Positions 23,665 through 61,892 of a stretch of 64,000 bases of DNA are shown here, in pieces. Location of the stretch: contig CAZSSP010000003.1 in NCBI GenBank assembly GCA_964609695.1, forward strand, positions 112,224-176,223, written 5' to 3'. Position numbers and translations under genes: made by a program. Positions within the stretch are counted from its first letter, which is position 1. Each line of letters begins with the position of its first letter. The stretch is from an uncultured Bacteriovoracaceae bacterium (lineage in GTDB: Bacteria > Bdellovibrionota > UBA2428). A model generated the notes under the pieces. That model was not told where the DNA came from and ran no database searches. It was given only the letters and a program-made list of their open reading frames with translations.

Positions 23665-25836
23665 TTAATTGGCCAATGTGGGACAAGCATTTGGATCAAC
23701 TTTAAAGTTGCCACAAACTTCTCGGGTTTTTTTGCTGTTAGGAAAACATACGTGGATATGATTATGGTGTCCATCTTCATAGCGACAGCTTCTTAAGTTA
23801 GGATCATTGAATAGAATCGTTTCACCGCCAAAATCCTTAGCCATATTGATAAATTTTTGAGTGATGCTCGGACTGTAAGCATTGTCACGGAAAGTAAGAG
23901 GTTCATCTTTAAATTCATCTTTTCTAAAGGGTCTTATGTCTACACAATTTCCAATGGTGTGCGAACTATGATCATTAAAATACATCGCATCGACTTTTGA
24001 AATATCTCCCCAAGAAAGTCGGTAAGCAGAATCTTTATAAGCTATTCCCGCTGGAGCTTGTTTTCGCCATTCTTGCATGAGTGCAGTGAAGGCACAGGCT
24101 GTGATAGGTGAGGCGTAAGCATCATTTCCATTAAGTCCGGCGTTATAGTGAAAACTTCCGCAGGGTCCAACGCTAGGGGCTTTAGGGTTTAAAGGAATTT
24201 GAACCAATCCTGCTTCTCTTACGAGTACAGATCTCCCTTTTCTAGTTGTTGTATAAAGTGCAGGTGAGGTTTTGAAGTACGGAGTTACATAATGTTTATC
24301 GGCTATCATTTTTTTAATTTCCCAAGTAAAAGAAGGTTCACTAAGGGTTTTTGTATCGGTGAGTTTGGCTAAGGTTAAATTAGGATCAGCTTTATAGCCA
24401 TGAGAATAAAACCAACTCATAACAGTCGGGTCTCTGCTGCCAGGTTTACCTATGAGTCTTAGAATTTCATTGACCCGTGATTTGGGGTCGCGAGCTTCTT
24501 CTTGAACCATTACGTCAACTAAGCGGTCTTCATAATCTTGGCTTCCAGGGGTGAGTCCTTCGAATCTATAAGCATATTTTTGAATCAGTAAAGCTCGTTC
24601 TTCACTGTCGAGGCGTTTGGGATCGTATCGAGTCCAGGCTTGTTCGTTGAGTTCGTCGACAAGATTTTTCATCTCCTCAAAATGAGCGTAACAATCATTT
24701 TTATCATCTTGGCTTTTAAATTTTTCTTGGTCACAGAATTTTTTTAAACTTTGACTTAAGTGATAATCGGTTTTGTCTTGGAGGTTGACACCTTTTTCTC
24801 TCAAAAAGATATTGTTGTTTCTTCGAAGCCGGGCCACAGCATTTACGTTATGCCAGATTGCAGTTTCCATATGGGGCTGTCCTATGGCACCTACAACTCG
24901 ATTGGCATATTCATTGGTGACGGCACCGTGTAGAAAATTTCTAGAAATTTCATTTGTGTAAGCTTTACCATTGAAACTATTTGAACCCACAACAAAATTA
25001 GATGTGTTGTAAGTGACTCCCGGCGCGTTGCTTTCATGGTTTTCAAGAAAAATTAATTTTTTCACATAATCCATGGCGTTTACAGTTTCTTTAATATGAA
25101 CGTTGCCTTTAGAATTTTCATCGAGCATTTCCACATTTTGAATGAAGTGATCTATGTTGGCTGGAGTGTCTTCACGGTATTCTCGTGATTTGTGCATTTT
25201 ATCTGAAACATCTTTCCAGAAATAAGAATTGAGATCTTGGAGCGGTTCCTCAAGAGTGTTTTGGCATCTTGTTCGATTCCAGTCCTTTTTGAGGTGGTAT
25301 TCGCACCAGTTTTTAATTTGTTCTTTTAGTAAATCTAATAAATTGGATTTTTCTTTGTGTGTTAAATAAAGATTATTTTTTCTTTGGAGGCGAGCAATGC
25401 TGTTTCCAAATTGCCAAACCTTAAGAGCAAAGTCAGGTTTTCCAAGAGACATAGTCACTTGAGCCAAATAAGAGTTTACAATTTGTGAGTGATATTGATT
25501 TCTTTCTTCTTTGTCTTTGTAGGGGACAAGTTTTCCCTCATCATTTAAATATCCATCGGGCCCTATAACGTAATCTGGAAACTGAACCGGAATACCTTTT
25601 TCGAGTATCTCATCAGATTTATTACTTCCACTAACTGAGGAAGATTGAGACATGTGCCGTTGGGCTTCGTCTAAAGTTATGGAGTTTATTTTTTTGGTAT
25701 AGAGTAGAGATTCTTTGAGGTCTGGTTCCCTCATTAGAGGAATGGCGTCAGCAGCTTTTAAGGCTGTTGAACTCATGAAAAAGAGTATAGCTGCGCTCAT
25801 AAACAGCATAGAAAATGAGCGGCACAGGCTTCTCAT
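23665..25836 (-). CDS. Large secreted protein with C-terminal LAS-family (M15/VanY-like) zinc peptidase signature
   Basis: N-terminal signal peptide. C-terminal SSHTIGNCVD (SxHxxGxAxD-like) and HNHIHV (HxH) motifs characteristic of D-Ala-D-Ala carboxypeptidase/LAS peptidases. Confidence 0.5.
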   Translation of the reverse strand: MRSLCRSFSMLFMSAAILFFMSSTALKAADAIPLMREPDLKESLLYTKKINSITLDEAQRHMSQSSSVSGSNKSDEILEKGIPVQFPDYVIGPDGYLNDEGKLVPYKDKEERNQYHSQIVNSYLAQVTMSLGKPDFALKVWQFGNSIARLQRKNNLYLTHKEKSNLLDLLKEQIKNWCEYHLKKDWNRTRCQNTLEEPLQDLNSYFWKDVSDKMHKSREYREDTPANIDHFIQNVEMLDENSKGNVHIKETVNAMDYVKKLIFLENHESNAPGVTYNTSNFVVGSNSFNGKAYTNEISRNFLHGAVTNEYANRVVGAIGQPHMETAIWHNVNAVARLRRNNNIFLREKGVNLQDKTDYHLSQSLKKFCDQEKFKSQDDKNDCYAHFEEMKNLVDELNEQAWTRYDPKRLDSEERALLIQKYAYRFEGLTPGSQDYEDRLVDVMVQEEARDPKSRVNEILRLIGKPGSRDPTVMSWFYSHGYKADPNLTLAKLTDTKTLSEPSFTWEIKKMIADKHYVTPYFKTSPALYTTTRKGRSVLVREAGLVQIPLNPKAPSVGPCGSFHYNAGLNGNDAYASPITACAFTALMQEWRKQAPAGIAYKDSAYRLSWGDISKVDAMYFNDHSSHTIGNCVDIRPFRKDEFKDEPLTFRDNAYSPSITQKFINMAKDFGGETILFNDPNLRSCRYEDGHHNHIHVCFPNSKKTREVCGNFKVDPNACPTLAN

Positions 25837-26202: not shown

Positions 26203-27366
26203 TTAGAATCCTAAGCTTTGCTTATGAAGTTCGCCTGAGGCTTCGTCAACAAAAACCTCTGAATCTTTTGTTGAAAATCTAATTCGCTCCCCTTTTAAAA
26301 CCTGACTTTCTTTTTTTACTGTAGCCACATGTTTTAAAATGATCTGACCACTTTGAGGGTCAAATTCTGCTTCTTGGCACTGAGCCGTTCGATCGCTGGT
26401 TTCTATAGTGACATCACCTTGAAGGTAAAGTCTATCGGCCTCGGGATTTTTAGGGTTGCTAGCGTAGATGAGCTTTTCGCTTCTCATTTTAATTTTATCT
26501 CGAGTGACGGCGTCAACCTTACCGTGGGCTTCCATTTTATCGAGTTCACCACTCTCGTTAAAATAAACAGTCATACCATCTGAGTAGAGGTCAATTTTTT
26601 CAAGTTTGGCAACGATTTTTCTTCCGGCTTTTTCGGGATTACTTTCTAATTCTAGCCTTTCGATTTCGCCACCCTCACTGTTTTTTTTAGCGGCTTTCTT
26701 TTTATCTTTAAAAATAGTTTTTAAGCTATCTCCTAGGAGTTGCATTTTGTCGGAATAAACTTTGACTTCACCTAAGAACGTCGCAAAGTTTTGAGCGGGT
26801 TGGATGTTAACTCTTTCAGAAAGTATTTTTAAATCATTTTGTTTATGGTTTTTCTTTTGAGCGCTCACATCGGATAATATTTGATAGAAATCTTTTTTAG
26901 TTTCAATTTTTAAACCTCGGCCGCTAATTTCCATTTCATCTCCTGATTGACGTGCGGCTCTGAGGGCTCTGATGGAGTCTTCGCTAGTGAGAATTCCGCT
27001 AGAGTTTTCGTAATCTAAACTTTCCGTCTGAAATAATGTCCCATCGGGACTGAGCAACGAACAGTTTTTTCGGAGGCTGAGGTCCTGGCTAAGAGTTTGA
27101 ATGATTCCTTCATTAGCCATAATTTTGTAAGGCTCACTTTGATGATTCCAAATTAATGTTTCTGGCATTCTCACGGTGCTGAGATTTTGTTTTTGATAAA
27201 CTTCTGCGGAATCGGCCTTCATTGAGAAGCGCTTTTTTTGGCGATGAACATCGATCATTTGAAAACGATGTATTTCCACGTCTGGCTTGCCCGTCGGAAA
27301 CGTTAATGCGGCGAGCAAATATCCTTTGCTCTTAAGTGCTTTGTGCAATTTCCGATTCATTCTCAA
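26203..27366 (-). CDS. Hypothetical periplasmic protein, possibly LptA/LptC(OstA)-like
   Basis: C-terminal segment ...YLQGDVTIETSDRTAQCQEAEFDPQSGQIILKHV... resembles OstA-like beta-jellyroll repeats. Weak. Confidence 0.3.
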   Translation of the reverse strand: MRMNRKLHKALKSKGYLLAALTFPTGKPDVEIHRFQMIDVHRQKKRFSMKADSAEVYQKQNLSTVRMPETLIWNHQSEPYKIMANEGIIQTLSQDLSLRKNCSLLSPDGTLFQTESLDYENSSGILTSEDSIRALRAARQSGDEMEISGRGLKIETKKDFYQILSDVSAQKKNHKQNDLKILSERVNIQPAQNFATFLGEVKVYSDKMQLLGDSLKTIFKDKKKAAKKNSEGGEIERLELESNPEKAGRKIVAKLEKIDLYSDGMTVYFNESGELDKMEAHGKVDAVTRDKIKMRSEKLIYASNPKNPEADRLYLQGDVTIETSDRTAQCQEAEFDPQSGQIILKHVATVKKESQVLKGERIRFSTKDSEVFVDEASGELHKQSLGF

Positions 27367-30629: not shown

Positions 30630-30947
30630 TTAGTCATCTTCTTTATCGCAACAAAACATATTATCGCCATATCCGTCGTGAGGATCCAATGGGTGGCAAG
30701 TTGAAGCGTTAGATTTGATCATCTGGGCTTTAGACATCACCTTGCAATCGGATTCTTGATCTTTCCACTTTTTAACCTGTTCCTTAGAGGGTTTTGCGGC
30801 CTCTTCATATTGCATGGTTTCATTTATTTTTTCTCTATCCCACTCTTGCTCGTGCCCAACATGTTTAACCTTTGTCTGGTTTTTTTTCGAAGAACAAGCT
30901 GTTATGCTGATTAGGGATACAATGAAAAGGGTGAGGACTTTTCTCAT
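30630..30947 (-). CDS. Small lipoprotein
   Basis: MRKVLTLFIVSLISITAC lipobox. Cys-rich C-terminus (CHP...CCDKEDD). Confidence 0.35.
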   Translation of the reverse strand: MRKVLTLFIVSLISITACSSKKNQTKVKHVGHEQEWDREKINETMQYEEAAKPSKEQVKKWKDQESDCKVMSKAQMIKSNASTCHPLDPHDGYGDNMFCCDKEDD

Positions 30948-30968
30948 AACTTCTAATTTTACAGACTC

Positions 30969-33386
30969 ATGAAGAATGTCCAACATATATTTTGGTCGAA
31001 CGGAAAAAACACTTTAACGCTTGACACCCTGCTCTGGAAGTTTCCGCAAAAGCTCTTAGCTTCACTGAATCTAAAAGAACTCCAAGTCTCTATATATAAT
31101 GCTCTAGTTCTGGATTGGGGCGATGCTCCCGTTGCGGATTTAGAAGAAATTAAAAACTGGATTCGATGCGGATCAAATTTTCAGTTTGTAGATAAATATC
31201 CTACATTTGCTTTAGAGTTTAGATCTAAAAGTTCCTTAGCTCAGGAGCTTCCTACGCTTTTATTAAGTAATTTTCAGCACGGAGCTCATTCAAGCCCTCA
31301 TTCTATTTATCAAAGTAAAATTCTCGAATTTCATTTTACAGGGCCTGAAGGAGAATCCCTATGGGAGAAAATTCTTGAAGCATTAAAAAAGCGCCCCAAT
31401 CTCAATACGCTCTGGGATCCAGTTGTAGAAGAAATGCGCGTAGTGAAAGATTCTAAATATGATTTCTGGACTTTTTCTCGAAATGATTTTTCTCAGTGGA
31501 AGGATATTCAAGCAATAATCGAATCTGAGTATGAAAATCAAGAAACTCATCCCTTAAAAAATCATCATTTGCTTATCGAAAAACAAAATGCACAAGAAGA
31601 AGCTCGACCTAGATATGTTCAAAATCAACTCGCTAAGGATCTTTGGAGTAATTTGTATGGTAAAGAATTTAAAGCACAGGCTGATTTTTTATTTTTTAAA
31701 CCTAAAAAGTGGAAGTTGAGGCAGTTCTCAGAATTTTCACCTAAAAGAGTACTAGCTAAATCCTTAGCGTTGTCTGGAAAACCTTTAGGAAATTTTGTTG
31801 AAATTGAAATCAATTCTGTTTTCCCTCGTGTTGAGAGCCTCAGTTCTTTGCCTGTTTCAAGTCAACGCTTTTATAATCAAAAGAATGGTGAACACTTATT
31901 TTTTGTGGGCCCTTGGGATTCTAATAATAAGGTTGTAGAGCAATCTGTTGAAAAGTGGCTTCAAGCTAAACCCGATCTTCTTATTAGAGGAATTCTTTGG
32001 GATTCATCTGAAAATTGGGTGTATTCGTTGTTAGAAACAGTTTTCAAGCTTCCTGGATGGCGTTTCGAGAAATCTGCATTTATGAATTTCTTAAGTGCCG
32101 TTAGTGAAAAGTCCTATTCATCAAATTATTTAATTTTCTGGGGAGAAATTAAAGAAATCACTCAATTTCAAGATGGAACATTTCCCGCTGGTTTAAAAGC
32201 TGGAATTTTAGGGTCTCGTGATCGCGATGGAGTTTATCAAGTCGATGCTTTTGAAGAGTCTGCTTCGTTTTTTTCAAAATTAAAATCAGATCTTAAAACT
32301 GGAAGTGATCCAAATTCTTTAGCTAGTAAATTAAAAACAGTTATTCGAGAAAATCCTCAAATTAAAGCCGCCTCATATGGCTACGATAGGGCGTCAGCGT
32401 TTCCAGATCAATATAGCTTAAAGGCGCATGTGGTCGCACGTGGGACCAATCAAGAGTGGATTGAGTCTCTGTGGTTAAATAGAACCGGATCTAAAATTTG
32501 GTCTACTACTATGGGATCCTTTTTTAATATCGCTAGTAATTCAAGAAAAGTGGCTACGGGTGAAAATTTAAATGTCGTAGCTGGGCAGCGTCTGCGTGCT
32601 TCTTGGTCCCATAACCCCGCTAAGAGTGCGGCTATTTTAATCGATGATGCCTTGAGGTCACTATTATCTCAGGGGGCTTCTCTAAAACGTATCAGCGTTA
32701 ATTTATGGATTGGATATGGCCGAAGATTATCGGGCCCCACTCAAGCTTCATTAAGTTTATTTTTTGAATCGTTTAAATCAAATTTATTAAAATTAGGGAT
32801 GAGCTTAGATTCTTTAAAAATGTCGCCTATGGCTCATTCGGAAGGCTTAGACGCATTTTTAATGCTGCAATCTCAAGAAGGATTATTGGAGCCTCAAGAT
32901 TCATTTTCTGGGTTTAGAATGGAAGAGGAAAGCATTTATTCTGTGGGGCCTAGACCCTTTCAAATGGAGTCGGGAAGTACGGTGCTTCGTTTTGTGCGAG
33001 TTTATTCTAATTTTGTTTCTTCCATTGAAGTTGAAAAGCAAATACAACTTTATCATCGCTTATCAGAACTTCAGAGAAAGGGAATCATATCTTCATTATC
33101 TAGCGTAACAGAAAGGGGTATAGCTGGATCTTTGTTAAATATGTCACTCTGGGGATCTCGTGGCGCGCAATTGCGACCAGGTTTGTCTTCAATAGAATTG
33201 TTTAGCGCAAGTCCTGGTCGATTACTTGTAGGTGTTCTGCCTCAAGATGCAAAAACTTTTGAATCTGAATTAAAAGGTGAGCAAGTATTAATGGTTGGAA
33301 CTGTTAAAGGGGATCGACTTTGGGGTTTAAAGTTAAGTGAAATGGTGAAGGTCATGACAGATTATGAAAAAGATCATATTGCTTAA
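30969..33386 (+). CDS. Divergent PurL-like (FGAM synthase / PurM-fold) protein
   Basis: C-terminal SVTERGIAGSLLNMSLWGSRGAQLRPG...ELFSASPGRLLVGV resembles the PurM C-terminal-domain consensus (HDVAEGGLG..LAE...LFSESQSR.V..V). WSHNPAKSAA is a weak echo of the E(S/T)HNHPSA motif. Confidence 0.45.
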   Translation: MKNVQHIFWSNGKNTLTLDTLLWKFPQKLLASLNLKELQVSIYNALVLDWGDAPVADLEEIKNWIRCGSNFQFVDKYPTFALEFRSKSSLAQELPTLLLSNFQHGAHSSPHSIYQSKILEFHFTGPEGESLWEKILEALKKRPNLNTLWDPVVEEMRVVKDSKYDFWTFSRNDFSQWKDIQAIIESEYENQETHPLKNHHLLIEKQNAQEEARPRYVQNQLAKDLWSNLYGKEFKAQADFLFFKPKKWKLRQFSEFSPKRVLAKSLALSGKPLGNFVEIEINSVFPRVESLSSLPVSSQRFYNQKNGEHLFFVGPWDSNNKVVEQSVEKWLQAKPDLLIRGILWDSSENWVYSLLETVFKLPGWRFEKSAFMNFLSAVSEKSYSSNYLIFWGEIKEITQFQDGTFPAGLKAGILGSRDRDGVYQVDAFEESASFFSKLKSDLKTGSDPNSLASKLKTVIRENPQIKAASYGYDRASAFPDQYSLKAHVVARGTNQEWIESLWLNRTGSKIWSTTMGSFFNIASNSRKVATGENLNVVAGQRLRASWSHNPAKSAAILIDDALRSLLSQGASLKRISVNLWIGYGRRLSGPTQASLSLFFESFKSNLLKLGMSLDSLKMSPMAHSEGLDAFLMLQSQEGLLEPQDSFSGFRMEEESIYSVGPRPFQMESGSTVLRFVRVYSNFVSSIEVEKQIQLYHRLSELQRKGIISSLSSVTERGIAGSLLNMSLWGSRGAQLRPGLSSIELFSASPGRLLVGVLPQDAKTFESELKGEQVLMVGTVKGDRLWGLKLSEMVKVMTDYEKDHIA

Positions 33387-34017
33387 AGGGCCTGGGTTAT
33401 TAGATTATTCTGAAATCGCATTTCTATTTGAGTCTCCTGACGTTAGTTTCGAAACCATAGAAATTAATGCATTTAGTTCAGAGCACCCTCGTTTTTCAGA
33501 TTTAAAATTTGATGGATTGATTTTTGGTTCTCCATATTTTTTTAGTCCCGAAGAAGCTCTTTGGGTTCGTTTGTTAACGAAAAAAATTGCACCACTTTTA
33601 GACAATTGTTGGGAGTCTAACGCTAAGGTTTTAGCGATGGGACGTGGTGCTTTAGTGTTTTGGGAATGGATGCTGGCTGATCGTTGGAAAAATTGGAAGG
33701 TTTTTGAATCCGCTGGTGTCGATGATTCTCTTTTAGAGTGCGAATTTTTTATTAGGGGTGAATGGAAGGCTTTGCGTTGTGGTCGTTTCAGTACTGACTT
33801 TATTTTACCAGAAACTAATGATTTCACGGATTGGGAGTCATTTTTAAGAAATTCAGGAAACACATTAGGTTGGGTGACTCGTAATTGCTATATCACTTTA
33901 GTGGATTTGCTTGCTTTTATGAATTCGGCTCAATTAGAATCTTATGGTTATTCGACTGATATTGAGCCCGGGGACTTTGCTGGGACCATAATTGAGGATA
34001 TTTTTGAATTAAAATGA
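33364..34017 (+). CDS. PurQ-like class I glutamine amidotransferase homologue, probably catalytically inactive
   Basis: KKIILLKGPG...FDGLIFGSPYFFSPEEAL...KVLAMGRGALVFWEWM parallels the PurQ/PurL glutaminase layout, but the nucleophile Cys position (GxCNG) reads AMGRG. Overlaps the upstream gene by 23 nt. Confidence 0.4.
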   Translation: MKKIILLKGPGLLDYSEIAFLFESPDVSFETIEINAFSSEHPRFSDLKFDGLIFGSPYFFSPEEALWVRLLTKKIAPLLDNCWESNAKVLAMGRGALVFWEWMLADRWKNWKVFESAGVDDSLLECEFFIRGEWKALRCGRFSTDFILPETNDFTDWESFLRNSGNTLGWVTRNCYITLVDLLAFMNSAQLESYGYSTDIEPGDFAGTIIEDIFELK

Positions 34018-35402
34018 GAAGCAGAGAAGAAGTTTTTGAAGATTGGAAAAAAAAATCCCTTCAGGATTTTTGGTTAATTTCTCAAGAGTTCTTTTCTTCT
34101 GATTCCGATTTTGTAGAGTTATTAGATAGAGTTTCCTACCAAGTAAAAAAGGGTAAATTAAGAAGCAGTGTAGAGTGTGACCGCTATTTGTTTTCACTTT
34201 TCCTTAAAACATTAGGTCAAAAAAGAAGAGCTGTTACTGAAAAAATTTATTTATTAGCATTGTTTAAGCTCAATTGGCCTCTTGAAAAGTTGTCTTCATT
34301 AACACATGAATATACTTCGAAAATAAAGTTTGTAGTCACTCAATCTTTAAAAGATAGGGTTTCTGTAGAGTTGAGCTCTAAAAAACTAACTCAGGATTGC
34401 TGCCGGGCCGATCTTTTTTTGGTGGATTATTTATTTGAGCGATCTTGGAAGCTTCCTTTTAAGGAAAATTTTAATCTTTTAACACTGAAAAATCATTTAA
34501 AATCTTGTGAACGTTGTCAGGCTGTGGTGGGTGCTGCCGAGGGAATTAAATCGCAAGTTGTTTATCAAGATATTAAAACATTTGAATATCAGTATCCCTT
34601 TACAAAAAAGATAAGCAAAAACAAAGTTCTCAAAAGTTTTGAGTTTTATCAGAACTTTTCATTGCATTGGAAGGGCTTAATTCAGATTCTACTTTCTATA
34701 GTATTAGTTTTTTCTATTGCGACAATTCCATTTGTTGGTAAATTTCTCATAAAACAACAACAAGGGGCTCAGTCTGAGGGCGAAGCAAAGAAAGCTGCAG
34801 TTGAAAAGCTTGATGCGACTTGGGTTGATTTAGCTCTCGAGCGTGATTTAATCTCTCCTCCTTGGCTTGTGAGTGAGCAACATGATAGCCCTCAGATTTC
34901 ACCTCTAAGTAAATTTTTAAATAATTATAAAGCAGAAGAAATAGCGCTTTCTCAGAAAAAAGAGACTGTTGATGTAGAGGCCCCAAAAGTGCAGGCTCCT
35001 CAGGTGGCTAAGAATGATGGCCCTAAAAACGCAGTAGTAGAAGTTGTAAAAGCGGATATTAAAACACGCTCTGAAATTGAAGAAGAGAATGCAGCAGAAT
35101 CTGATAATCAGTGGGTATTTTATAGGTGGGGTGCTTACGCTGAGGATCTAGACGTGATAGTTCCGAAAATTTTGAGCGTTCTTGAAATAAATCAAGCGGA
35201 AAAAGCCGGAGAACTAGATTTGGGTGCTGAGTATCGTGGTGGCCGCTATTTTCACTTTTCCATTAAAAAAGAGTTAATGAGAAAAGTTGTTGATGAATTA
35301 AAGACTTTAAAGCTTGAAGGATTTACAAAAGTTGAAGCAAAGTCAGACCGTAAAAATAAAGAAGGTCATTCAAGAATAGTCTTTCTACTCAAGCAAAAAT
35401 AA
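34014..35402 (+). CDS. Single-pass membrane protein with ZAS-type (zf-HC2) anti-sigma zinc-finger motif
   Basis: DCCRADLFLVDYLFE...(31 aa)...NHLKSCERCQ gives C...H-x3-C-x2-C. Central TM (LIQILLSIVLVFSIATIPFVGKFLI). ATGA overlap with the upstream gene. Confidence 0.4.
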   Translation: MRSREEVFEDWKKKSLQDFWLISQEFFSSDSDFVELLDRVSYQVKKGKLRSSVECDRYLFSLFLKTLGQKRRAVTEKIYLLALFKLNWPLEKLSSLTHEYTSKIKFVVTQSLKDRVSVELSSKKLTQDCCRADLFLVDYLFERSWKLPFKENFNLLTLKNHLKSCERCQAVVGAAEGIKSQVVYQDIKTFEYQYPFTKKISKNKVLKSFEFYQNFSLHWKGLIQILLSIVLVFSIATIPFVGKFLIKQQQGAQSEGEAKKAAVEKLDATWVDLALERDLISPPWLVSEQHDSPQISPLSKFLNNYKAEEIALSQKKETVDVEAPKVQAPQVAKNDGPKNAVVEVVKADIKTRSEIEEENAAESDNQWVFYRWGAYAEDLDVIVPKILSVLEINQAEKAGELDLGAEYRGGRYFHFSIKKELMRKVVDELKTLKLEGFTKVEAKSDRKNKEGHSRIVFLLKQK

Positions 35403-45154: not shown

Positions 45155-46528
45155 TCACTTTAGGGGAGCATCAAATAAAGTTTGGGGCTCAGAAATTTCA
45201 TGAGGCTTTATAGCAGGTGGGCGCTTTTGTGCGGCTCTTTTTTCTGCGCTCTCGAAGATTTGACTGATTTGGTTTTCAATAACAGCTCTTTTAATCCCGC
45301 TACTATCGCTACGCCACATTTCAAGTAACGACCTCAATGTTTGCTTATCTTCATTGGATAAAATGGCATTTTTTTCTTTGATGACTTTTTCAATATCGAC
45401 AGGCTTAAAGCTTGTTTGAGTAATTGTTAACATTGGGTCGGGAAATGGGGGATTGAGTTTGGCGTAAGTCCAACTGCCACCGACCATTAGAGCTGCGGCT
45501 AGGGCCGTTACTATGGGGCGCCACACTCTGTGGTTTTGGGCGATTTGAGCGTGCGCTAATATTCTAGGCGCAATGACTTGTTTTCGATATCCAGCTTCAA
45601 CTTCAAAAAGATTTTTTTCATGGGCTTGGGCATCTAATAAAAGGCGTTCGAAGGAATCATAGTCAGCCTGATTCCATACGTGTTTTAAATAAAATTTATA
45701 GTTAGATTTAAAGAGCAGCATCAAAATTCGATGAGTGTAGGACTTGGGGGGATTTTCAGAGAGAGTGTCTTTAGCGGCTTCCCATTCTATGGGGTATTGA
45801 GGGAAATAGTTCTTCAAACCCCTCACTACAGAGTAGAAATGAAGTTCTCCTTGAGTGTAAGCATCGGCCACTCTGGCGGCGTAGGTGCGAGTGTTTTTAG
45901 AAAGGGGAAGTCTAAAAAATTCGCCTTTGCGGGCGACACTGAGAGTGTAAAAATCTGCAATCGATCTAGAAAAACTTCGAATATCGCGAAGTATTTGACC
46001 AAGGCTTTGTGTGCCTTCTCGAGGCCATTTCACTATGAGTTGTCGTTTGGAGTAGCTTAAACGAGTTTCAACCTGGCTGATGTCTTCAGTTTTGAAAACA
46101 ACGCTGAGACCAATTTGTGGATAGCGACTTAAATGTCGAGAGAGACTCCACTCATAATTTGGGTTGAGTGCATCGGCCATAGCCAAAAGGCTCTCGACTC
46201 CAGTCGGATGATTGTTTTTGAGTTCACTAAGAACATCTGCTTCGTTAAGCGACGTTCTTTCGCGGAAAAAGATATTCCATTTATGAAAGGAACTTTCGTA
46301 ATTTTCTTGATTATAGTTTTTTAAATGTGGGGTGAGCGTGGAAAGTTCGGACTCACAAGTAGGATTAGCTGAAGCTTGGGCTCCAAACTGAGGCGTAAGA
46401 ATGAGTAGGCTTAAACCTAGGGCTATAATCTTCACGGTGCCGCGTAGCATTATACGGAATTTAAATTTAGGCAAGTCTTCTTTTAAAAAAAGCTCTTGAG
46501 AATGAAATATTTTCAATAAAATCATCAA
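45155..46528 (-). CDS. Hypothetical exported protein with C-terminal TM anchor
   Basis: Signal-like IIALGLSLLILTPQFGAQA. C-proximal TM WRPIVTALAAALMVGGSW. Confidence 0.35.
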   Translation of the reverse strand: MMILLKIFHSQELFLKEDLPKFKFRIMLRGTVKIIALGLSLLILTPQFGAQASANPTCESELSTLTPHLKNYNQENYESSFHKWNIFFRERTSLNEADVLSELKNNHPTGVESLLAMADALNPNYEWSLSRHLSRYPQIGLSVVFKTEDISQVETRLSYSKRQLIVKWPREGTQSLGQILRDIRSFSRSIADFYTLSVARKGEFFRLPLSKNTRTYAARVADAYTQGELHFYSVVRGLKNYFPQYPIEWEAAKDTLSENPPKSYTHRILMLLFKSNYKFYLKHVWNQADYDSFERLLLDAQAHEKNLFEVEAGYRKQVIAPRILAHAQIAQNHRVWRPIVTALAAALMVGGSWTYAKLNPPFPDPMLTITQTSFKPVDIEKVIKEKNAILSNEDKQTLRSLLEMWRSDSSGIKRAVIENQISQIFESAEKRAAQKRPPAIKPHEISEPQTLFDAPLK

Positions 46529-46554: not shown

Positions 46555-46821
46555 TTAGTCGATGGCCTTTTGAATTTCTTTAAGTGCATTGAGGTGGCGT
46601 TGGTCGATGGGTTCCAAAGGATGTTGGGCGTTTTCAATATCTTGCTGTTTTGAGTTGGCAATGTCGCGAGCGACTTGGTCGTGTGTTTCTTTTTGAGTGA
46701 AATGAAGTGCAATCGCTAGAGTGCTCACACAAAGTAACCAGCCCAATTTATGCATCACAAAATCCCCCCAAATTGGCCTATCATTAGGCCAATGATTTTT
46801 AATTTCCGGTATAAGCAACAT
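46555..46821 (-). CDS. Small hypothetical membrane protein
   Basis: 88-aa ORF with one hydrophobic segment (LGWLLCVSTLAIALH). Overlaps the upstream gene end. Confidence 0.25.
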   Translation of the reverse strand: MLLIPEIKNHWPNDRPIWGDFVMHKLGWLLCVSTLAIALHFTQKETHDQVARDIANSKQQDIENAQHPLEPIDQRHLNALKEIQKAID

Positions 46822-47986
46822 TCACAACAGCTCCGTTGCTAGGAACTGCAGATCCGTGGAAGACCAATCTGTTTTCGCTTGAAAGGTAAGTCCAGCCATT
46901 AGTGGCGTCTTGCGGATATTGTACGCTGTTAACTGTCACGACTAGATTGCTTAAATTTGGTGTTACAGAAAGTGTGAACTTAGGAAGATAAGTGATTCTT
47001 ACGCTTTGGCTAAGTCCAGGAATGTTTCCTGCTGTAAAAACGACTGTGCTACCTGATAAATTCCACTGTGTTCCTTTAGTTTTTTCGGCTCCGTTAACAT
47101 AAACATGCACAGTATCAGGATCAAAGTTAGCAATTTGAAGTTCGAATTTGTCTGTAGGTTTGCTCACGTCTTGCGCGAGATCATCAAGGAGTGCAGAAAA
47201 GTTCGAAGTTTTTACGCAGGCAGTGACTGATGTAGAGCTATTTTGTTGGTATTGGGCATCCAGTAATCTTGTAGTGTCCATGAAGCGTGTTCCAACTTTT
47301 TCGTCGATGTATGTTGGATCTGCTGTGCAACCACTGTTTCCAGTGATCACGATAGAACGAGAGCTGACGAAAGCAGAGCTTGGTTTGAAGGCTTTGAGGC
47401 TTGAAGCATAATTGCTCGCGCTTCGACTTCCGCCTAAGCGACTTTGAGAGAGATCATCGGTATCGGATACGAAAACGTAAACTAATTGCGAACCAGGTCT
47501 TACGAAACTAGATCCTCGCGCTTGCATTGTTTTTAATGTGGCTTCAAGGCCAAGGGTGGTGTTTTTAGCTAGCGGAGAACCTAAACTATAAAGTTGGTCG
47601 ATGAAACTATTTTGAAGAGACGCAGCTTGAGAGGATTCAATAGTGATTCCTCCAATAAAGCTTTGGCTAATAGTGCTGTATTGAGCGGCATCAACGTTTC
47701 CGTTGATAAATCCAATTCGGTATTTGATGTTTTCGCTCACAAGGCTTTGAGCAAAGTCTGAGAGACTGTCGATAAGAAGTTCTCTTTTGTTTTTCATAGA
47801 GTAACTTCCGTCTACAGTGAAGATGTAATCGGCTTGTAGAATTTGATTGGCTTGTTGGTAGAGATCTTCAGAGTCGATAGTGAAAGAGTCTACAGCTCCT
47901 GGAATAAAGGTTTGTGGTCCTTTACTGCACGAAGCAACTGCAAAAATCAGCGGCAATAGTAGGCATGCATAGCGTTTCATAAACAA
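46799..47986 (-). CDS. Lipoprotein with probable von Willebrand factor A (VWA)-like domain
   Basis: Lipobox LIFAVASC. DYIFTVDGSYSMKNKRELLIDSL resembles the VWA MIDAS motif DxSxS. Confidence 0.4.
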   Translation of the reverse strand: MFMKRYACLLLPLIFAVASCSKGPQTFIPGAVDSFTIDSEDLYQQANQILQADYIFTVDGSYSMKNKRELLIDSLSDFAQSLVSENIKYRIGFINGNVDAAQYSTISQSFIGGITIESSQAASLQNSFIDQLYSLGSPLAKNTTLGLEATLKTMQARGSSFVRPGSQLVYVFVSDTDDLSQSRLGGSRSASNYASSLKAFKPSSAFVSSRSIVITGNSGCTADPTYIDEKVGTRFMDTTRLLDAQYQQNSSTSVTACVKTSNFSALLDDLAQDVSKPTDKFELQIANFDPDTVHVYVNGAEKTKGTQWNLSGSTVVFTAGNIPGLSQSVRITYLPKFTLSVTPNLSNLVVTVNSVQYPQDATNGWTYLSSENRLVFHGSAVPSNGAVVNVAYTGN

Positions 47987-49094: not shown

Positions 49095-52000
49095 ATGCGA
49101 ATGAGGGCATGGGGTTTTGTTAAGGGCCAAAGTTTTGCATTTTTGAGAAAGCGTGTATTTCGTGTTCAGTTTTTATTAAGTTTAGCTTTAGGGAGTCTTT
49201 CTCAAGGCGCCCAAGCGGGTGTTGTTTGGGACGATTTAAAATCTTGTATGGCCAATCCCAAGCTTTGTGTTACTTCGATTCAATCCTCATTAAAAGCGGG
49301 CACAACGAGCATCGCCGATATGAGAAGAAACTTTTTGCTTCAGTATGCGATATTAAAAAATAGTCCTCAACTTTTAGCTCAACTCGAAGACATTTTAGGG
49401 CCTCTTGCTTTGAGTGAGACCGATAAATTAAAAATCAAACAGCTTCAAGAGAAGTATGCCAAAGTAAAAATTGATGAAGATCCCACTAAAGATGATCTTA
49501 AGGGATTTTCAAAAGAACTGGTGGATATACTTTCTCATGGAAATATTAACCCCGATCTCTTGGCCAAAATCAGTGAGCCACTTGAATCCGCAGGGCTTCT
49601 TGTTCACTCTCAACTGGACGAAGGCAGTGCTGCTGGCGCTCTTGCTAAAGAGGCAGCTGCATCTGGAGACTTTGAAAAAAGAATTGAAAACATGGCTGCA
49701 AGTGGAGGAGAAATATCGAATCCTTCAAAAGCAAATTTAGTTGAAGAAAAAAACACTAAATCGACGGCGACTAACTCGCCTAGCGACGAAGTGGCTTTAG
49801 ACGGTAGTCCCGTTGTTAATAAAAAAGTGGCATCGAATTTAAAAAGCAAAGCAAATCTTAATGGCAATTCTAAAAAATTTGATATTCCTACAGAAGATAT
49901 TATTCCCTCTTTTCCTGGGGCCCCAACATCAACGCCCTTGGCTTCGTCTAATTTTGACGGCTCAACGGGTAGTGGCGGCTCTACGGACTTAGTAGAGGAA
50001 TTTGAGAGAAGCCCCGCTTCGACTAGTGCTAAACAAGTGCACGGTAATGGGGATTCTTCTTCTACTTCGTCTTCGGGTGGTGCAAGTGCTGGAGCATCAA
50101 GCTCAGCGCCAATAAAGGGTAGTGGAAATAATGCAACGGATTCTTCGGGCTCTAGTGGAACATCAAGTGAAACAGCTTCTGTGGATACTCAACAAAATGG
50201 CTTGAGCCAGAACAATGGAACGCAAGATAAAGCAAATACTGCTTCCAGCGATTCACAAGATAATCAGCGGCATGTTTCAACTGATAACGGAACTGCTGCA
50301 AAAAATACTGATACCCAAGAGCGAAGCACTGAAGACTTTAAACCTAAAGAGGATCCCACTAAAGTTGAGCCTGCAAAAACTGGAGAGGCAAAAACAGGTG
50401 TAGAAATAAAAGGACCCGAAACTTTTAAGGCGACTAAGCCAGAAGTTAAAACTGCGGATAAAAGTTCAGTTTTTACGCAGCAGTTTTTAGATGCTCAAAA
50501 ATCAAAGGAATTAGTCAAGGCCTTTACTTCAAGTGACCAGGTGATTTCACCTCCTAATCTTACTGAAGGGATTAATTTGCTGATGTCACAGGGAAACTAT
50601 CAACAAGCTGAAGCTCTAATTAGATCTATGAATCCTGATTTTGTGGAAGAATATCAAAAACAAAAAGCGATAGATGATGAGATTTTACATTTATCTCAAA
50701 TGGAAAAAGCCGGTAAAATTACTAAGGAAGTTTTACTAGAAGAAGTTGCAAAAAATTTAGAAGCAAAAGAAAAGTTTAATAAATCTCGTGAAGCCAATAG
50801 CACAAATACTAAGGTTAAAAACGCTGCGAAATCAAAGACAACTTCAAAAGCTTCATCGGTAGTTTCTAAAGATCAAGTTTCTGCTCCCGATCGATTAAAA
50901 AAGGCATCCGATTTGATTGCCACTTCAATTAAAAGTAGTTCGGAAAACATTCTTCTGGAAACTAGAATAAAGCAAGCTAAAGAAACCTTGGAAGCTAGTT
51001 TAAAAAATCCTCCTTTACTTAACAGTGAGCGATTAGCTGAATGTAAATTGTTTTATAACAAAGCTTTTCTAGGTGATAGGGAGTCCGTTATTGAGCGTTC
51101 AAAAGAGTCGATAAAAGACTTTGGAGGAAATTTAGATACTGCCGATGTTAAATGTGAAAATTTGAAAATTAATTGGAGACATTCTTTGAGTAGCTACATG
51201 ATGCCGCTCAATCTTATGCATCCGGATGTAAATCCAAATTATAAACAAGATTTGCTTTATAATTGTGTTTCAGCATATTTGAAAATTTCAGCTTATAATA
51301 AATTAGCATCTTCTGAGGCCGACGAATATGTAAAAACGGGTTTAAAACCCATTACCAGTTACAATAAATACATGAGCTCTAAACTTGCTCAAGAAGATAG
51401 TTTGGAAATTCAGGCTAAACTTCTGCTAGTAGCAGAGCCTGAAGAATTGCTTTGTGCCTCTTTAATTCCAGAATACAACTTAAATAAACAAAGAGATTTA
51501 GGTAAAGTTCATGATTTTTATAAATGTGGCAAAGGAGCTCGAAGTTTAGAAACGCTTCCGCTTTATTTTGATAAAAAGGCTTATGAGAAACGTCTAGGAA
51601 ATTTACCACTTGTAGTCACGAGCAAAAATTTAAACGATAAAATGATTGAAGATTCTGAAGGTGTTGGCTTGCCTGTTTATCCCACAAGTACGAATTTAAC
51701 TGCCGATGGTCAGTTTGCTAAAACAGCATTTATGTTTAATTTTTTTAAAACAATTGAAATAGAAAATAATCAAATTCATGTGCCCTTTAAACCTTTTGAT
51801 TCTGAGGAAATTGGTCAAAGGTTGACGTTGCTTGAAGCTTCTAAAAGATCAAATTCTAACTCGCAATCAGATAAATTAAAAAGAGACAGAACTTATACTG
51901 CAAAACTTTATGAGTTACTTTATGGATCTTGTAGTCAATCTTTCGTAGGAGTAGGAGATGATTGTCGGGAGATTTTAAGTCATGATAAAGCGATTAAAGT

Positions 52001-52172
52001 AAAAACTGCTTTAACTAAAGCTAATCAAAGAGCATCACGAGATTTAGATAAGGTGAAATCAGATTTATTAAGTTCTGATGGTATGGAGAAGAATAAACCT
52101 TTTAGAGATGTTGTGGTTAAAAATCTATGTCGTGAAAGAGAACCAGCTTCAACTTCGCTTCACTCAAAATAG
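49095..52172 (+). CDS. Large secreted protein with Ser/Gly/Thr-rich low-complexity central region
   Basis: Signal peptide (FLLSLALGSLSQGAQA). About 170 aa of S/G/T/D/N-rich linker. Helical Lys-rich C-terminal half. No catalytic motif recognised. Confidence 0.45.
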   Translation: MRMRAWGFVKGQSFAFLRKRVFRVQFLLSLALGSLSQGAQAGVVWDDLKSCMANPKLCVTSIQSSLKAGTTSIADMRRNFLLQYAILKNSPQLLAQLEDILGPLALSETDKLKIKQLQEKYAKVKIDEDPTKDDLKGFSKELVDILSHGNINPDLLAKISEPLESAGLLVHSQLDEGSAAGALAKEAAASGDFEKRIENMAASGGEISNPSKANLVEEKNTKSTATNSPSDEVALDGSPVVNKKVASNLKSKANLNGNSKKFDIPTEDIIPSFPGAPTSTPLASSNFDGSTGSGGSTDLVEEFERSPASTSAKQVHGNGDSSSTSSSGGASAGASSSAPIKGSGNNATDSSGSSGTSSETASVDTQQNGLSQNNGTQDKANTASSDSQDNQRHVSTDNGTAAKNTDTQERSTEDFKPKEDPTKVEPAKTGEAKTGVEIKGPETFKATKPEVKTADKSSVFTQQFLDAQKSKELVKAFTSSDQVISPPNLTEGINLLMSQGNYQQAEALIRSMNPDFVEEYQKQKAIDDEILHLSQMEKAGKITKEVLLEEVAKNLEAKEKFNKSREANSTNTKVKNAAKSKTTSKASSVVSKDQVSAPDRLKKASDLIATSIKSSSENILLETRIKQAKETLEASLKNPPLLNSERLAECKLFYNKAFLGDRESVIERSKESIKDFGGNLDTADVKCENLKINWRHSLSSYMMPLNLMHPDVNPNYKQDLLYNCVSAYLKISAYNKLASSEADEYVKTGLKPITSYNKYMSSKLAQEDSLEIQAKLLLVAEPEELLCASLIPEYNLNKQRDLGKVHDFYKCGKGARSLETLPLYFDKKAYEKRLGNLPLVVTSKNLNDKMIEDSEGVGLPVYPTSTNLTADGQFAKTAFMFNFFKTIEIENNQIHVPFKPFDSEEIGQRLTLLEASKRSNSNSQSDKLKRDRTYTAKLYELLYGSCSQSFVGVGDDCREILSHDKAIKVKTALTKANQRASRDLDKVKSDLLSSDGMEKNKPFRDVVVKNLCREREPASTSLHSK

Positions 52173-58180: not shown

Positions 58181-58270
58181 TGGCGGAGAGGGTGGGATTC
58201 GAACCCACGTAACCCTTGCGGATTATCCAGTTTTCAAGACTGGCGCGATCAACCGCTCTGCCACCTCTCC
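58181..58270 (-). tRNA. tRNA-Ser (anticodon UGA)
   Basis: Minus-strand sense GGAGAGGTGGCAGAGCGGTTGATCGCGCCAGTCTTGAAAACTGGATAATCCGCAAGGGTTACGTGGGTTCGAATCCCACCCTCTCCGCCA. 7-bp acceptor stem, anticodon loop CTTGAAA, long variable arm, GTTCGAATC T-loop, encoded CCA. Confidence 0.85.
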
Positions 58271-58452: not shown

Positions 58453-58552
<100 letters not shown>

Positions 58553-61816: not shown

Positions 61817-61892
61817 TCGCTGGTAGCTCAGTTGGTAGAGCAGGTGGCTGTTAACCACCTTGTCGCAGGTTCGAGTCCTGCCCAGCGAGCCA
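61817..61892 (+). tRNA. tRNA-Asn (anticodon GUU)
   Basis: TCGCTGGTAGCTCAGTTGGTAGAGCAGGTGGCTGTTAACCACCTTGTCGCAGGTTCGAGTCCTGCCCAGCGAGCCA. Canonical cloverleaf with encoded CCA. Confidence 0.9.

Follow-up and report, generated by a model that had tools for sequence, protein, structure and literature searches.

How a zinc-binding anti-sigma (ZAS) motif comes to stand in a membrane protein that has no ECF sigma factor gene beside it is the question raised by this locus, which was examined within a window of 64,000 nucleotides (64 kb; the whole stretch of DNA that was analysed). A sequence-only reading had described an H-x3-C-x2-C motif well inside the protein, followed by a single transmembrane (TM) helix, and had suggested that an orphan ZAS module was recruited into a pathway served by PurL-like neighbours. 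The reading favored in this study is that the gene probably encodes a one-chain inner-membrane sigma/anti-sigma signalling protein, with its sigma partner fused in cis as a degenerate module. The open reading frame is genuine and encodes 462 aa, and its ATG start codon shares the tetranucleotide ATGA with the stop of the upstream 217-aa gene. The features discussed below are located in Table 1.

Table 1. Positions, within the 64-kb window, of the gene for the 462-aa protein, its predicted parts and the two upstream genes.
Feature	Position	Strand	Basis
Whole gene; proposed sigma-like/ZAS anti-sigma fusion membrane protein, 462 aa	34014..35402	+	
N-terminal module, residues 1-118, six helices (H4-24, H30-45, H52-67, H71-85, H90-97, H101-116)	34014..34367	+	
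Putative sigma region-4-type helix-turn-helix (HTH), residues 73-116	34230..34361	+	hhalign, PDB profile match, P0078 alignment
Predicted class-I zinc-binding anti-sigma domain, residues 127-183 (helices 127-140, 155-164, 166-183)	34392..34562	+	
C129, putative fourth zinc ligand, 31 residues upstream of H161	34398..34400	+	
H161-x3-C165-x2-C168 motif; family form H-x3-C-x-R-C	34494..34517	+	Invariant in 39/39 members
Single TM helix, residues 220-242, with conserved P239	34671..34739	+	
Long helix, then disordered A/E/K/V/P-rich linker, residues 245-365, predicted periplasmic	34746..35108	+	pLDDT and composition
C-terminal alpha/beta domain, residues 366-462, conserved; putative periplasmic sensor	35109..35399	+	
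Upstream gene 1: 805-aa remote PurL-like (PurM-superfamily) protein, no PurL orthologue	30969..33386	+	
Upstream gene 2: 217-aa protein, no family match; overlaps its neighbours by 23 nt and 4 nt	33364..34017	+	

The segment singled out by the sequence-only reading corresponds to residues 128-169 of the 462-aa protein and contains C129 and C130 and, 31 residues on, H161-L-K-S-C165-E-R-C168, so that the match to H-x3-C-x2-C is exact. Conservation was assessed over 39 relatives with about 22% identity to the 462-aa protein (range 18-29%); H161, C165 and C168 are invariant in this family, and conservation reaches at least 90% at C129, D133 and R167. By alignment, C129 is at least 90% conserved in A2 and invariant in A3 and A7. 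A chance motif was ruled out by this conservation together with a shuffle test, in which the pattern arose anywhere in the protein in 117 of 200,000 composition shuffles. In the AF2 model, C129 lies on the helix spanning residues 127-134, which is the first helix of the anti-sigma domain (ASD), and the helix II/III junction of the domain falls at H161/C165.

On the 462-aa protein itself, zf-HC2 gave no Pfam match at E<=1 and its gathering threshold was not reached, Pfam and NCBIfam produced no usable match, and a single-sequence phmmer search against the PDB found nothing. Inside the clade the best zf-HC2 match was at E 0.0086; matches were found in 11 of 100 more distant relatives, the best-scoring of which, the homologue P0074, exceeds the gathering threshold (29.2 vs 22.2 bits). 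Additionally, the top PDB match of the family profile was the anti-sigma-W factor RsiW (E 0.0021), the RsrA model matched the 462-aa protein weakly (E 0.013-0.1), and member P0009 matched an NCBIfam anti-sigma model at E 6e-4. Of the two findings that the sequence-only reading had named as counting against it, one was therefore obtained, the lack of a zf-HC2 match on the 462-aa protein, and the other was not, since the Cys and His residues are conserved in its relatives. Combined, the conserved ligands, the RsiW and RsrA matches and the zf-HC2 score of P0074 support the view that this single-pass membrane protein contains a ZAS-type anti-sigma domain, which would be expected to bind zinc. The protein resembles RsiW, RsrA and ChrR in having H-x3-C-x2-C, an upstream Cys and a helical anti-sigma domain, and shares a single TM helix with RsiW; unlike the 462-aa protein, these three carry the ASD at the extreme N-terminus, and their sigma is the product of a separate, usually adjacent gene.

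The TM helix following the motif was confirmed as the one hydrophobic segment of the protein, at residues ~220-242, with a peak Kyte-Doolittle 19-mer of 2.45. Its preceding flank contains five K/R against one D/E, which fits an N-in topology. Beyond the membrane, AF2 assigned pLDDT values <50 across residues 277-361 and of 93-98 to the C-terminal domain, whose topology is beta-alpha-beta-beta-alpha-beta-beta and which carries the motifs FYRWGA, AGELxLGAxYxGGRYFHF, SDR and RIVF. According to an exhaustive profile search, this domain is common to ~260 proteins, including classical short anti-sigma-like ones.

Both peculiarities that the sequence-only reading had pointed out are real. The motif is displaced from the N-terminus, as the ZAS domain is preceded by ~125 residues; and an adjacent ECF sigma is absent within the 64-kb window, where phmmer with RpoE and SigR found no ECF sigma among all six-frame ORFs and Pfam gave no match on the small unassigned ORFs. 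The preceding residues give remote matches to sigma region 4. The N-terminal profile aligned by hhalign in register with the sigma4.2 HTH of RpoE (2e-5), SigR (1e-3) and SigW (9e-3) and with a 144-aa Sigma70_r4_2 protein from locus L005 (1.8e-4); FliA sigma4 was the second-best PDB match of the family profile (E 0.15), and the Pfam family that members match most often is Sigma70_r4_2. P0078, a homologous Oligoflexia protein named 'sigma-70 family RNA polymerase sigma factor' at NCBI, aligned with the family profile at 99.6% probability (E 1.8e-23), starting at residue 73 of the 462-aa protein and residue 115 of P0078, within the Sigma70_r4_2 match of the latter (108-154). Full-length ECF sigma models align to residues ~7-161 of P0078, P0086 and P0051, with scores below the curated cut-offs (26-28 bits vs 42.9 for P0078 and P0051). 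These alignments point to a remote homology of residues 73-116 to sigma region 4.

The first half of the module is less distinct. TIGR02937 and Sigma70_r2/r4_2 gave no match on the 462-aa protein at the curated cut-off, and hhalign of residues 1-70 with sigma2 of RpoE, SigW, SigR, P0078, P0086 and P0051 was not significant (E 0.06-0.45); in the AF2 model these residues show no more than a three-helix fold. Residues 1-190 were modelled as one confident folded unit (pLDDT 90.3, pTM 0.83), and a degenerate ECF-sigma-like domain is proposed for residues 1-118. Because the N-terminal offset carries a putative sigma4-type HTH, the sigma partner is likely fused in cis, and a partner in cis would explain both why the motif lies ~130-160 residues from the N-terminus and why there is no ECF sigma gene next door.

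The wider family contains split as well as fused forms. At L005, the 144-aa gene, whose product scores above threshold for Sigma70_r4_2 (30.5 bits), overlaps the gene of a 345-aa zf-HC2 relative by 4 nt, and L017 has the same split layout; the fused form comprises about 40 clusters at 50% identity. A word-indexed homologue search recovered 3 relatives only, the family surfacing with the exhaustive profile search, and a metagenome scan with a 12-sequence alignment returned 4 loci only. In the sources that name them, the family proteins appear as 'hypothetical protein'. No account of the family in Bdellovibrio came up in a literature search, and the ECF classification paper makes no mention of Bdellovibrio or Oligoflexia; the family is unannotated.

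These relatives bear on the alternative that the protein is a conventional membrane anti-sigma for an ECF sigma encoded elsewhere, its N-terminal 125 residues being an accessory helical/HTH domain unrelated to the target. In its favor, the ZAS, TM helix and C-terminal domain agree with the classical layout of the relatives of ~350 aa, residues 1-70 are not demonstrably sigma2, and no sigma HMM passes threshold on the 462-aa protein. However, all of the clade retains the extension, the second half of which appears homologous to sigma region 4, the N-termini of relatives are more clearly ECF sigma, the split form has a Sigma70_r4_2 gene directly upstream of the anti-sigma gene, and residues 1-190 are predicted to pack as one unit, all of which make a conventional anti-sigma decidedly unlikely.

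Whether a fused sigma partner would still work as a sigma factor is a further matter. In the AF2 model, helix 52-67 passes into helix 71-85 through ~3 residues, leaving almost no linker between the halves of the module, and a flexible sigma2-sigma4 linker able to span RNAP is absent. Judging from this model, the short linker might block sigma function, and the sigma-like part of the protein may no longer be acting as a sigma. Foldseek searches of the PDB with the full-length and N-terminal models returned nothing significant; PhyR recurred at E>0.4, and its sigma-like domains were the best sensible, if non-significant, neighbours of the N-terminal module. The PhyR SL domain, from the alphaproteobacterial general stress response, is, like the module proposed for residues 1-118, a compact degenerate sigma2-sigma4-like helical module (~120-130 aa), and its partner is of anti-sigma type, not RNAP. 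PhyR differs from the 462-aa protein in having a receiver domain, in being soluble and in binding NepR, which is no ZAS protein, and the structural likeness is non-significant.

A cis partner-switch along PhyR-like lines was accordingly weighed, in which the N-terminal module would be a catalytically dead sigma mimic competing with a separately encoded ECF sigma for its own anti-sigma domain, and signalling would make that domain exchange the decoy for the genuine sigma or the reverse. PhyR sigma-like domains being the only recurring sensible structural neighbours, the shortness of the module, the near-zero linker and a sigma2 sequence that is no longer detectable are all consistent with a mimic; this arrangement nevertheless seems unlikely, given that the structural matches are non-significant, that the protein has no receiver domain or other cytoplasmic switch input, and that no candidate partner sigma was found in the 64-kb window.

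The upstream genes were also compared with the purine enzymes named by the sequence-only reading, which had taken them as PurL-like partners. A single AIRS_C domain was detected in 7 of 7 orthologues of the 805-aa protein (best E 2.8e-8), and the protein matched PDB entry 3viu at E 0.0014; a homologue search with its profile found 2 close proteins only, both named hypothetical. The 805-aa protein was rejected as a true PurL, since its score was 30.6 bits against an equivalog cut-off of 648, the match was confined to the C-terminal ~150 residues, and the duplicate AIRS N-/C-terminal domains were not found beyond the one AIRS_C. For the 217-aa family, there was no Pfam match and no PDB profile match; PurQ or another class-I glutamine amidotransferase was rejected for this protein (hhalign vs a PurQ sequence, E 0.28), and the family has an invariant G-R-G-A where the nucleophile Cys would be expected, so that a PurQ-like nature is an impression only. 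The term PurL-like partners is thus only partly right: the 805-aa protein has an AIRS_C domain and a weak PurL match, and the 217-aa protein matches nothing.

The genes for the 805-aa, 217-aa and 462-aa proteins are tightly coupled throughout this Bdellovibrionota clade and not in the wider family. Wherever a clade member has enough flanking sequence, the genes overlap or lie almost end to end (the window, L001, L002, L003, L006, L007, L009, L011, L012 and L014), although identity in the three proteins has dropped to about 20-30%; the neighbouring aspS is still near E-250. Coupling that persists despite such divergence could indicate that the ZAS domain was recruited to a non-sigma pathway, where the 805-aa and 217-aa proteins would be its targets or be anchored by it; it could, for instance, regulate a PurM-superfamily complex in response to redox state or zinc. 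Yet the coupled loci are all broadly syntenic, so the three-gene linkage could be inherited gene order, and members of the wider family have different neighbours (Transgly, MreB together with a histidine kinase, or pseudopilin genes). With a sigma4-like module in cis as the obvious partner for the ASD, and nothing that points to purine or redox chemistry, recruitment of this kind is judged very improbable. The earlier proposal of an orphan ZAS module in a PurL-like pathway, with its redox link, is therefore not supported as stated: the putative sigma4-type HTH is in cis, the PurL-like linkage is restricted to the clade, and no evidence ties the coupling to redox or purine chemistry. A more speculative combination, to which very little probability is given, would make the dead sigma mimic and its own ZAS a single-chain membrane partner-switch with PhyR/NepR logic, wired in this Bdellovibrionota clade to a pair of PurL/PurQ-derived pseudoenzymes as cytoplasmic input or output; if true, a sensor derived from purine enzymes would be linked to envelope state by a signalling route that does not use a conventional sigma factor.

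The preferred reading, a sigma partner fused in cis, has counterparts among known proteins. Sigma/anti-sigma hybrids with ZAS, TM helix and Pro-rich linker are described for ECF48, ECF52 and ECF53, and IutY is a further sigma/anti-sigma hybrid (PMC8999054). ECF52 (SCO4117, Streptomyces coelicolor) and ECF48/ECF53 have in one polypeptide the order of parts that is proposed for the 462-aa protein (PMC8999054; see also PMC5826349): a sigma module, ZAS, one TM helix, a Pro-rich/flexible linker outside the cytoplasm and, at the C-terminus, a globular domain. The ECF52/48/53 proteins, however, are actinobacterial, contain an ECF sigma that HMMs recognise in full (sigma2, linker and sigma4) and end in a carbohydrate-binding region, whereas the 462-aa protein is from Bdellovibrionota, has a proposed sigma part of ~118 aa with near-zero linker and remote homology at the level of sigma4 only, and ends in an uncharacterised alpha/beta domain. 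The hybrid layout, a single chain that joins sigma module, ZAS and TM helix to an extracytoplasmic extension, is a likeness of architecture only, and phylogenetic membership of ECF52 is unlikely. In IutY (ECF243, Pseudomonas putida), sigma and membrane anti-sigma form a single protein, which is activated when regulated proteolysis by Prc and RseP frees the sigma part (PMC8999054). IutY, like the fusion proposed for the 462-aa protein, joins a sigma-type part to a membrane anti-sigma in one chain; IutY differs in having a functional sigma and TonB-dependent cell-surface signalling, and its anti-sigma part is not reported as ZAS in PMC8999054.

By analogy with IutY and ECF52/SCO4117, a way of working can be proposed for a chain that would run, from N to C, from the ~118-aa ECF-sigma-like module through the class-I ZAS, the TM helix and the periplasmic linker to the alpha/beta C-terminal domain. 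The anti-sigma domain, stabilised by zinc bound through C129, H161, C165 and C168, would hold the sigma-like module at the membrane by contact in cis. A signal at the periplasmic C-terminal domain, or a thiol/zinc event at the ZAS site, would then cause the protein to be cleaved or to open, which would free the cytoplasmic sigma-like module to act. Because of the ~3-residue junction and a first half in which sigma2 sequence is not detected, the module once freed may no longer be a conventional RNAP sigma subunit, and its output could instead be that of a sigma4-type DNA- or protein-binding module.

The apparent anomaly of an anti-sigma zinc finger without a sigma is thus resolved by a partner that is probably in cis and so decayed that standard HMMs miss it. 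The practical yield is modest: annotation is improved, and Bdellovibrionota gain a candidate for envelope signalling that can be tested. The family presents a graded series from the split gene pair, through fused forms in which an ECF sigma is recognisable, to those with a vestigial sigma, which could reveal how sigma/anti-sigma pairs become single-chain transducers or sigma mimics. Additionally, relatives are repeatedly linked to genes for MreB and GT51 transglycosylase, a hint that the signal in these lineages of predatory bacteria is related to the cell wall.

The 462-aa window protein is a single-pass membrane protein comprising, from N to C terminus, a sigma4-containing module, a four-ligand zinc-binding anti-sigma (ZAS) domain, a transmembrane (TM) helix, a flexible linker and a conserved C-terminal domain. 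The peptide quoted in the sequence-only reading corresponds to residues 128-169; it opens with C129 and C130 and carries, 31 residues further, an exact H-x3-C-x2-C motif (H161-LKS-C165-ER-C168). When the protein was shuffled 200,000 times with its composition kept, the motif arose at any position in just 117 cases. A single strongly hydrophobic segment was found at residues about 220-242, confirming both the motif and the single TM helix of that reading. The flank ahead of this segment is K-rich (5 K/R vs. 1 D/E), and the protein therefore fits an N-in, C-out topology.

A word-indexed homologue search recovered no more than three relatives, with identities of 93% (one) and 26-27% (two), across all of which C129, R131, D133, H161, C165, R167 and C168 were invariant. 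When 1.84 billion cluster representatives were searched with a profile, 262 proteins were returned at E≤1e-3, 43 of them at E≤1e-30; every full-length member (about 420-590 aa) carries H-x3-C-x-R-C at residue about 145-210, and the N-terminal extension ahead of the motif is kept throughout the fused clade. Two observations had been named as counting against an anti-sigma finger, namely the lack of a zf-HC2 hit and poorly conserved Cys/His residues. The first was indeed made, since Pfam zf-HC2 gave no match to the window protein even at E≤1; the second clearly fails, as H161, C165 and C168 are invariant in a 39-sequence alignment (mean column identity 22%) in which conservation reaches at least 90% for C129, D133 and R167. 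Homology of the motif region to ZAS domains is supported despite the missing zf-HC2 match, because the anti-sigma-W factor RsiW was the best PDB match of the family profile, aligned at the motif (E 0.0021), the model of RsrA, a sensor of thiol oxidants, matched the window protein weakly (E 0.013-0.1), an NCBIfam anti-sigma model matched one member (P0009, E 6e-4), and zf-HC2 was matched by 11 of 100 more distant relatives sharing the C-terminal domain.

AlphaFold2 predicted with high confidence six N-terminal helices (4-24, 30-45, 52-67, 71-85, 90-97 and 101-116) followed by three in the anti-sigma domain (ASD; 127-140, 155-164 and 166-183). Residues 1-190 modelled alone reached a pLDDT of 90.3 and a pTM of 0.83, which predicts that extension and ASD pack together as one unit. 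Independent evidence of several kinds marks residues about 73-116 as a probable sigma region-4 helix-turn-helix. The N-terminal profile aligned by hhalign in one register with sigma4.2 of RpoE (E 2e-5), SigR (1e-3) and SigW (9e-3), and with a 144-aa Sigma70_r4_2 protein (E 1.8e-4). FliA region 4 was the second-best PDB match of the whole-family profile (E 0.15; profile 72-126 vs. FliA 177-233), and the top families in a Pfam scan of all 39 members were Sigma70_r4_2 (three members, best E 7e-4) and zf-HC2 (three members). The family profile also matched P0078 (99.6% probability, E 1.8e-23), a fused and more sigma-like relative named by NCBI 'sigma-70 family RNA polymerase sigma factor [Oligoflexia bacterium]'; their alignment begins at window residue 73 and P0078 residue 115, within the Sigma70_r4_2 match of P0078 (108-154, E 4.5e-5), and runs on across its zf-HC2 match and the common C-terminal domain. 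Matches to full-length ECF sigma models span residues about 7-161 of P0078 and of two similar relatives (P0086 and P0051), all of them below curated cut-offs (e.g., BldN-family, 8-146 vs. 13-155 of 170; SigC, 6-159 vs. 16-173 of 179). Residues 1-70 showed no significant similarity to region 2 of the tested sigmas and the more sigma-like relatives (E 0.06-0.45), and in the model about three residues join the two halves of the module with no long linker between them. The module is therefore termed sigma-like and is not filed as an ECF sigma. In ECF holoenzymes a long linker lets the sigma span RNA polymerase, suggesting that the window module may be unable to work as a conventional sigma.

A split form of the same architecture was found outside the clade. 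A short relative (P0074, 345 aa) has zf-HC2 at residues 18-47, above the gathering score (29.2 vs. 22.2 bits), and its gene lies directly downstream of, and overlaps by 4 nt, the gene of the 144-aa protein, which passes the Sigma70_r4_2 threshold (30.5 vs. 25.7 bits; locus L005). The arrangement recurs at a second locus (L017), where the small protein has 150 aa and shares 28% identity with the 144-aa protein (E 2e-12); jointly, the two small proteins match the clade N-terminal profile (E 2e-4). The lengths nearly add up, at 144 + 345 aa for the split form against 462-511 aa for fused proteins. On the simplest reading, the window protein unites in one chain a small sigma-like protein and the ZAS anti-sigma factor that partners it, which puts the 'missing' sigma in cis. 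The earlier statement that no ECF sigma is adjacent holds insofar as none was detectable in the window by phmmer or by Pfam on candidate ORFs, although the partner is now read as fused; the puzzle of an anti-sigma finger without a sigma is thus largely explained. Gene order in the split form is mreB, the 144/150-aa sigma-like gene, a 345/358-aa anti-sigma-like membrane protein and a further membrane protein (L005:387-3417; L017:5513-10017), the last being a HAMP histidine kinase in L017 and cut off in L005.

Within the TM helix a proline (P239) is conserved. A long helix follows, then a disordered A/E/K/V/P-rich linker (pLDDT below 50 over 277-361) and a very confidently modelled alpha/beta domain (residues 366-462) of predicted beta-alpha-beta-beta-alpha-beta-beta topology. 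This domain holds the most conserved motifs of the family (FYRWGA, AGELxLGAxYxGGRYFHF, SDR and RIVF) and links the fused clade with about 200 shorter anti-sigma-like proteins; it matched no Pfam family, and three distant relatives weakly matched DUF4349. Many short-class proteins lack the H-x3-C-x2-C ligands (e.g., P0064).

All clade loci whose flanks are long enough (the window, L001/L004, L002/L010, L003, L006, L007, L009, L011, L012 and L014) have the 805-aa, 217-aa and 462-aa genes side by side, overlapping or a few bases apart, with a convergent aspS after them; by source title these loci come from Bdellovibrionota or unclassified 'Proteobacteria' MAGs. This linkage might be inherited gene order, because the loci are broadly syntenic over >10 kb; the three proteins diverge to 20-30% identity, yet the start/stop overlap is retained. 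The partners had been called PurL-like, which stands in part: the AIRS_C domain of the 805-aa protein is genuine (7/7 orthologues, best E 2.8e-8) and its coupling is conserved in the clade, but its weak PurL match over the C-terminal third scores far below the PurL cut-off, so that PurL orthology was rejected, and the 217-aa protein matched no Pfam or PDB family. The 805-aa protein carries the PurM-superfamily AIRS_C domain at its C-terminal end only, its N-terminal ~530 residues match nothing, and seven orthologues, about 24% identical, share many invariant residues; it could represent a pseudoenzyme derived from PurL, or a new enzyme of the PurM superfamily. The 217-aa protein recalls PurQ by size and by position after a PurL-like gene, and its family has invariant G9-P10-G11, E63-E64, G93-R94-x-A96 and W111; the impression is of a PurQ-like protein in which an invariant G-R-G-A has taken the place of the nucleophile, a similarity that hhalign against a PurQ sequence did not confirm (E 0.28).

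Outside the clade, a GT51 peptidoglycan transglycosylase gene (PF00912) directly follows each of the three fused, more sigma-like relatives (L015:1416-4318, L018:81-2805 and L019:2447-5193; genes overlapping or 1 nt apart), which suggests a conserved sigma/anti-sigma-fusion and transglycosylase operon in Oligoflexia-like bacteria. The split form is flanked by mreB on one side and a HAMP histidine kinase gene on the other, and another relative (P0040) comes after pseudopilin genes. Therefore, the PurL-like association is clade-specific, and the wider family sharing the C-terminal domain leans towards cell-envelope functions.

The rest of the window holds housekeeping genes (Lon, LepA, CarAB, RecG, AspRS and HisRS), and local GC rises to 0.43-0.46 across 58-62 kb. 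Read from internal Met14, the 118-aa ORF has a textbook lipoprotein signal (MRKVLTLFIVSLISITAC) and a Cys-rich C-terminus; three loci (L001, L002 and L006) have a similar-sized gene (101-118 aa) in the same orientation and position. The 387-aa protein, with LptC (27-169) and LptA/LptD_N (OstA; 278-368) domains in one chain, looks like an LptC-LptA fusion. The 152-aa antisense ORF recurs in the 92-93%-identical locus L003 and is most likely a shadow ORF, being conserved only in this near-identical genome.

Coordinates of the features discussed, in window positions
Feature	Position	Strand	Remark
462-aa ORF	34014-35402	+	own ATG overlaps stop of upstream 217-aa ORF by 4 nt
217-aa ORF	33364-34017	+	overlaps 805-aa ORF by 23 nt
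805-aa ORF	30969-33386	+
118-aa ORF	30630-30986	-	divergent from 805-aa gene; annotated starts overlap
152-aa antisense ORF	33405-33863	-	within 217-aa gene
387-aa ORF	26203-27366	-
Four ORFs (395-1025 aa)	23665-25836; 49095-52172; 45155-46528; 46799-47986	-; +; -; -	no Pfam match at E≤1e-5
tRNA-Ser(TGA)	58181-58270	-
Small SRP RNA	58456-58552	+	adjoins tRNA-Ser(TGA)
tRNA-Asn(GTT)	61817-61892	+

Sigma/anti-sigma hybrids have already been described, namely IutY and ECF48/52/53, including SCO4117 (PMC8999054). By analogy, the sigma-like module would be bound in cis by the ASD, and a signal reaching the C-terminal domain in the periplasm would lead to regulated proteolysis and free the cytoplasmic module. 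The freed module could work as a minimal sigma, as a DNA binder of the sigma4 type or, like PhyR, as a decoy for a separately encoded sigma. ECF52-type hybrids share the architecture of the window protein, which differs from them in its lineage, vestigial sigma part, uncharacterised C-terminal domain and conserved coupling to PurM-superfamily genes. No description of the family was found in the literature searched, and those sources that name clade members use 'hypothetical protein'. The residual interest of the family lies in its decayed sigma module and its PurL-like neighbours.
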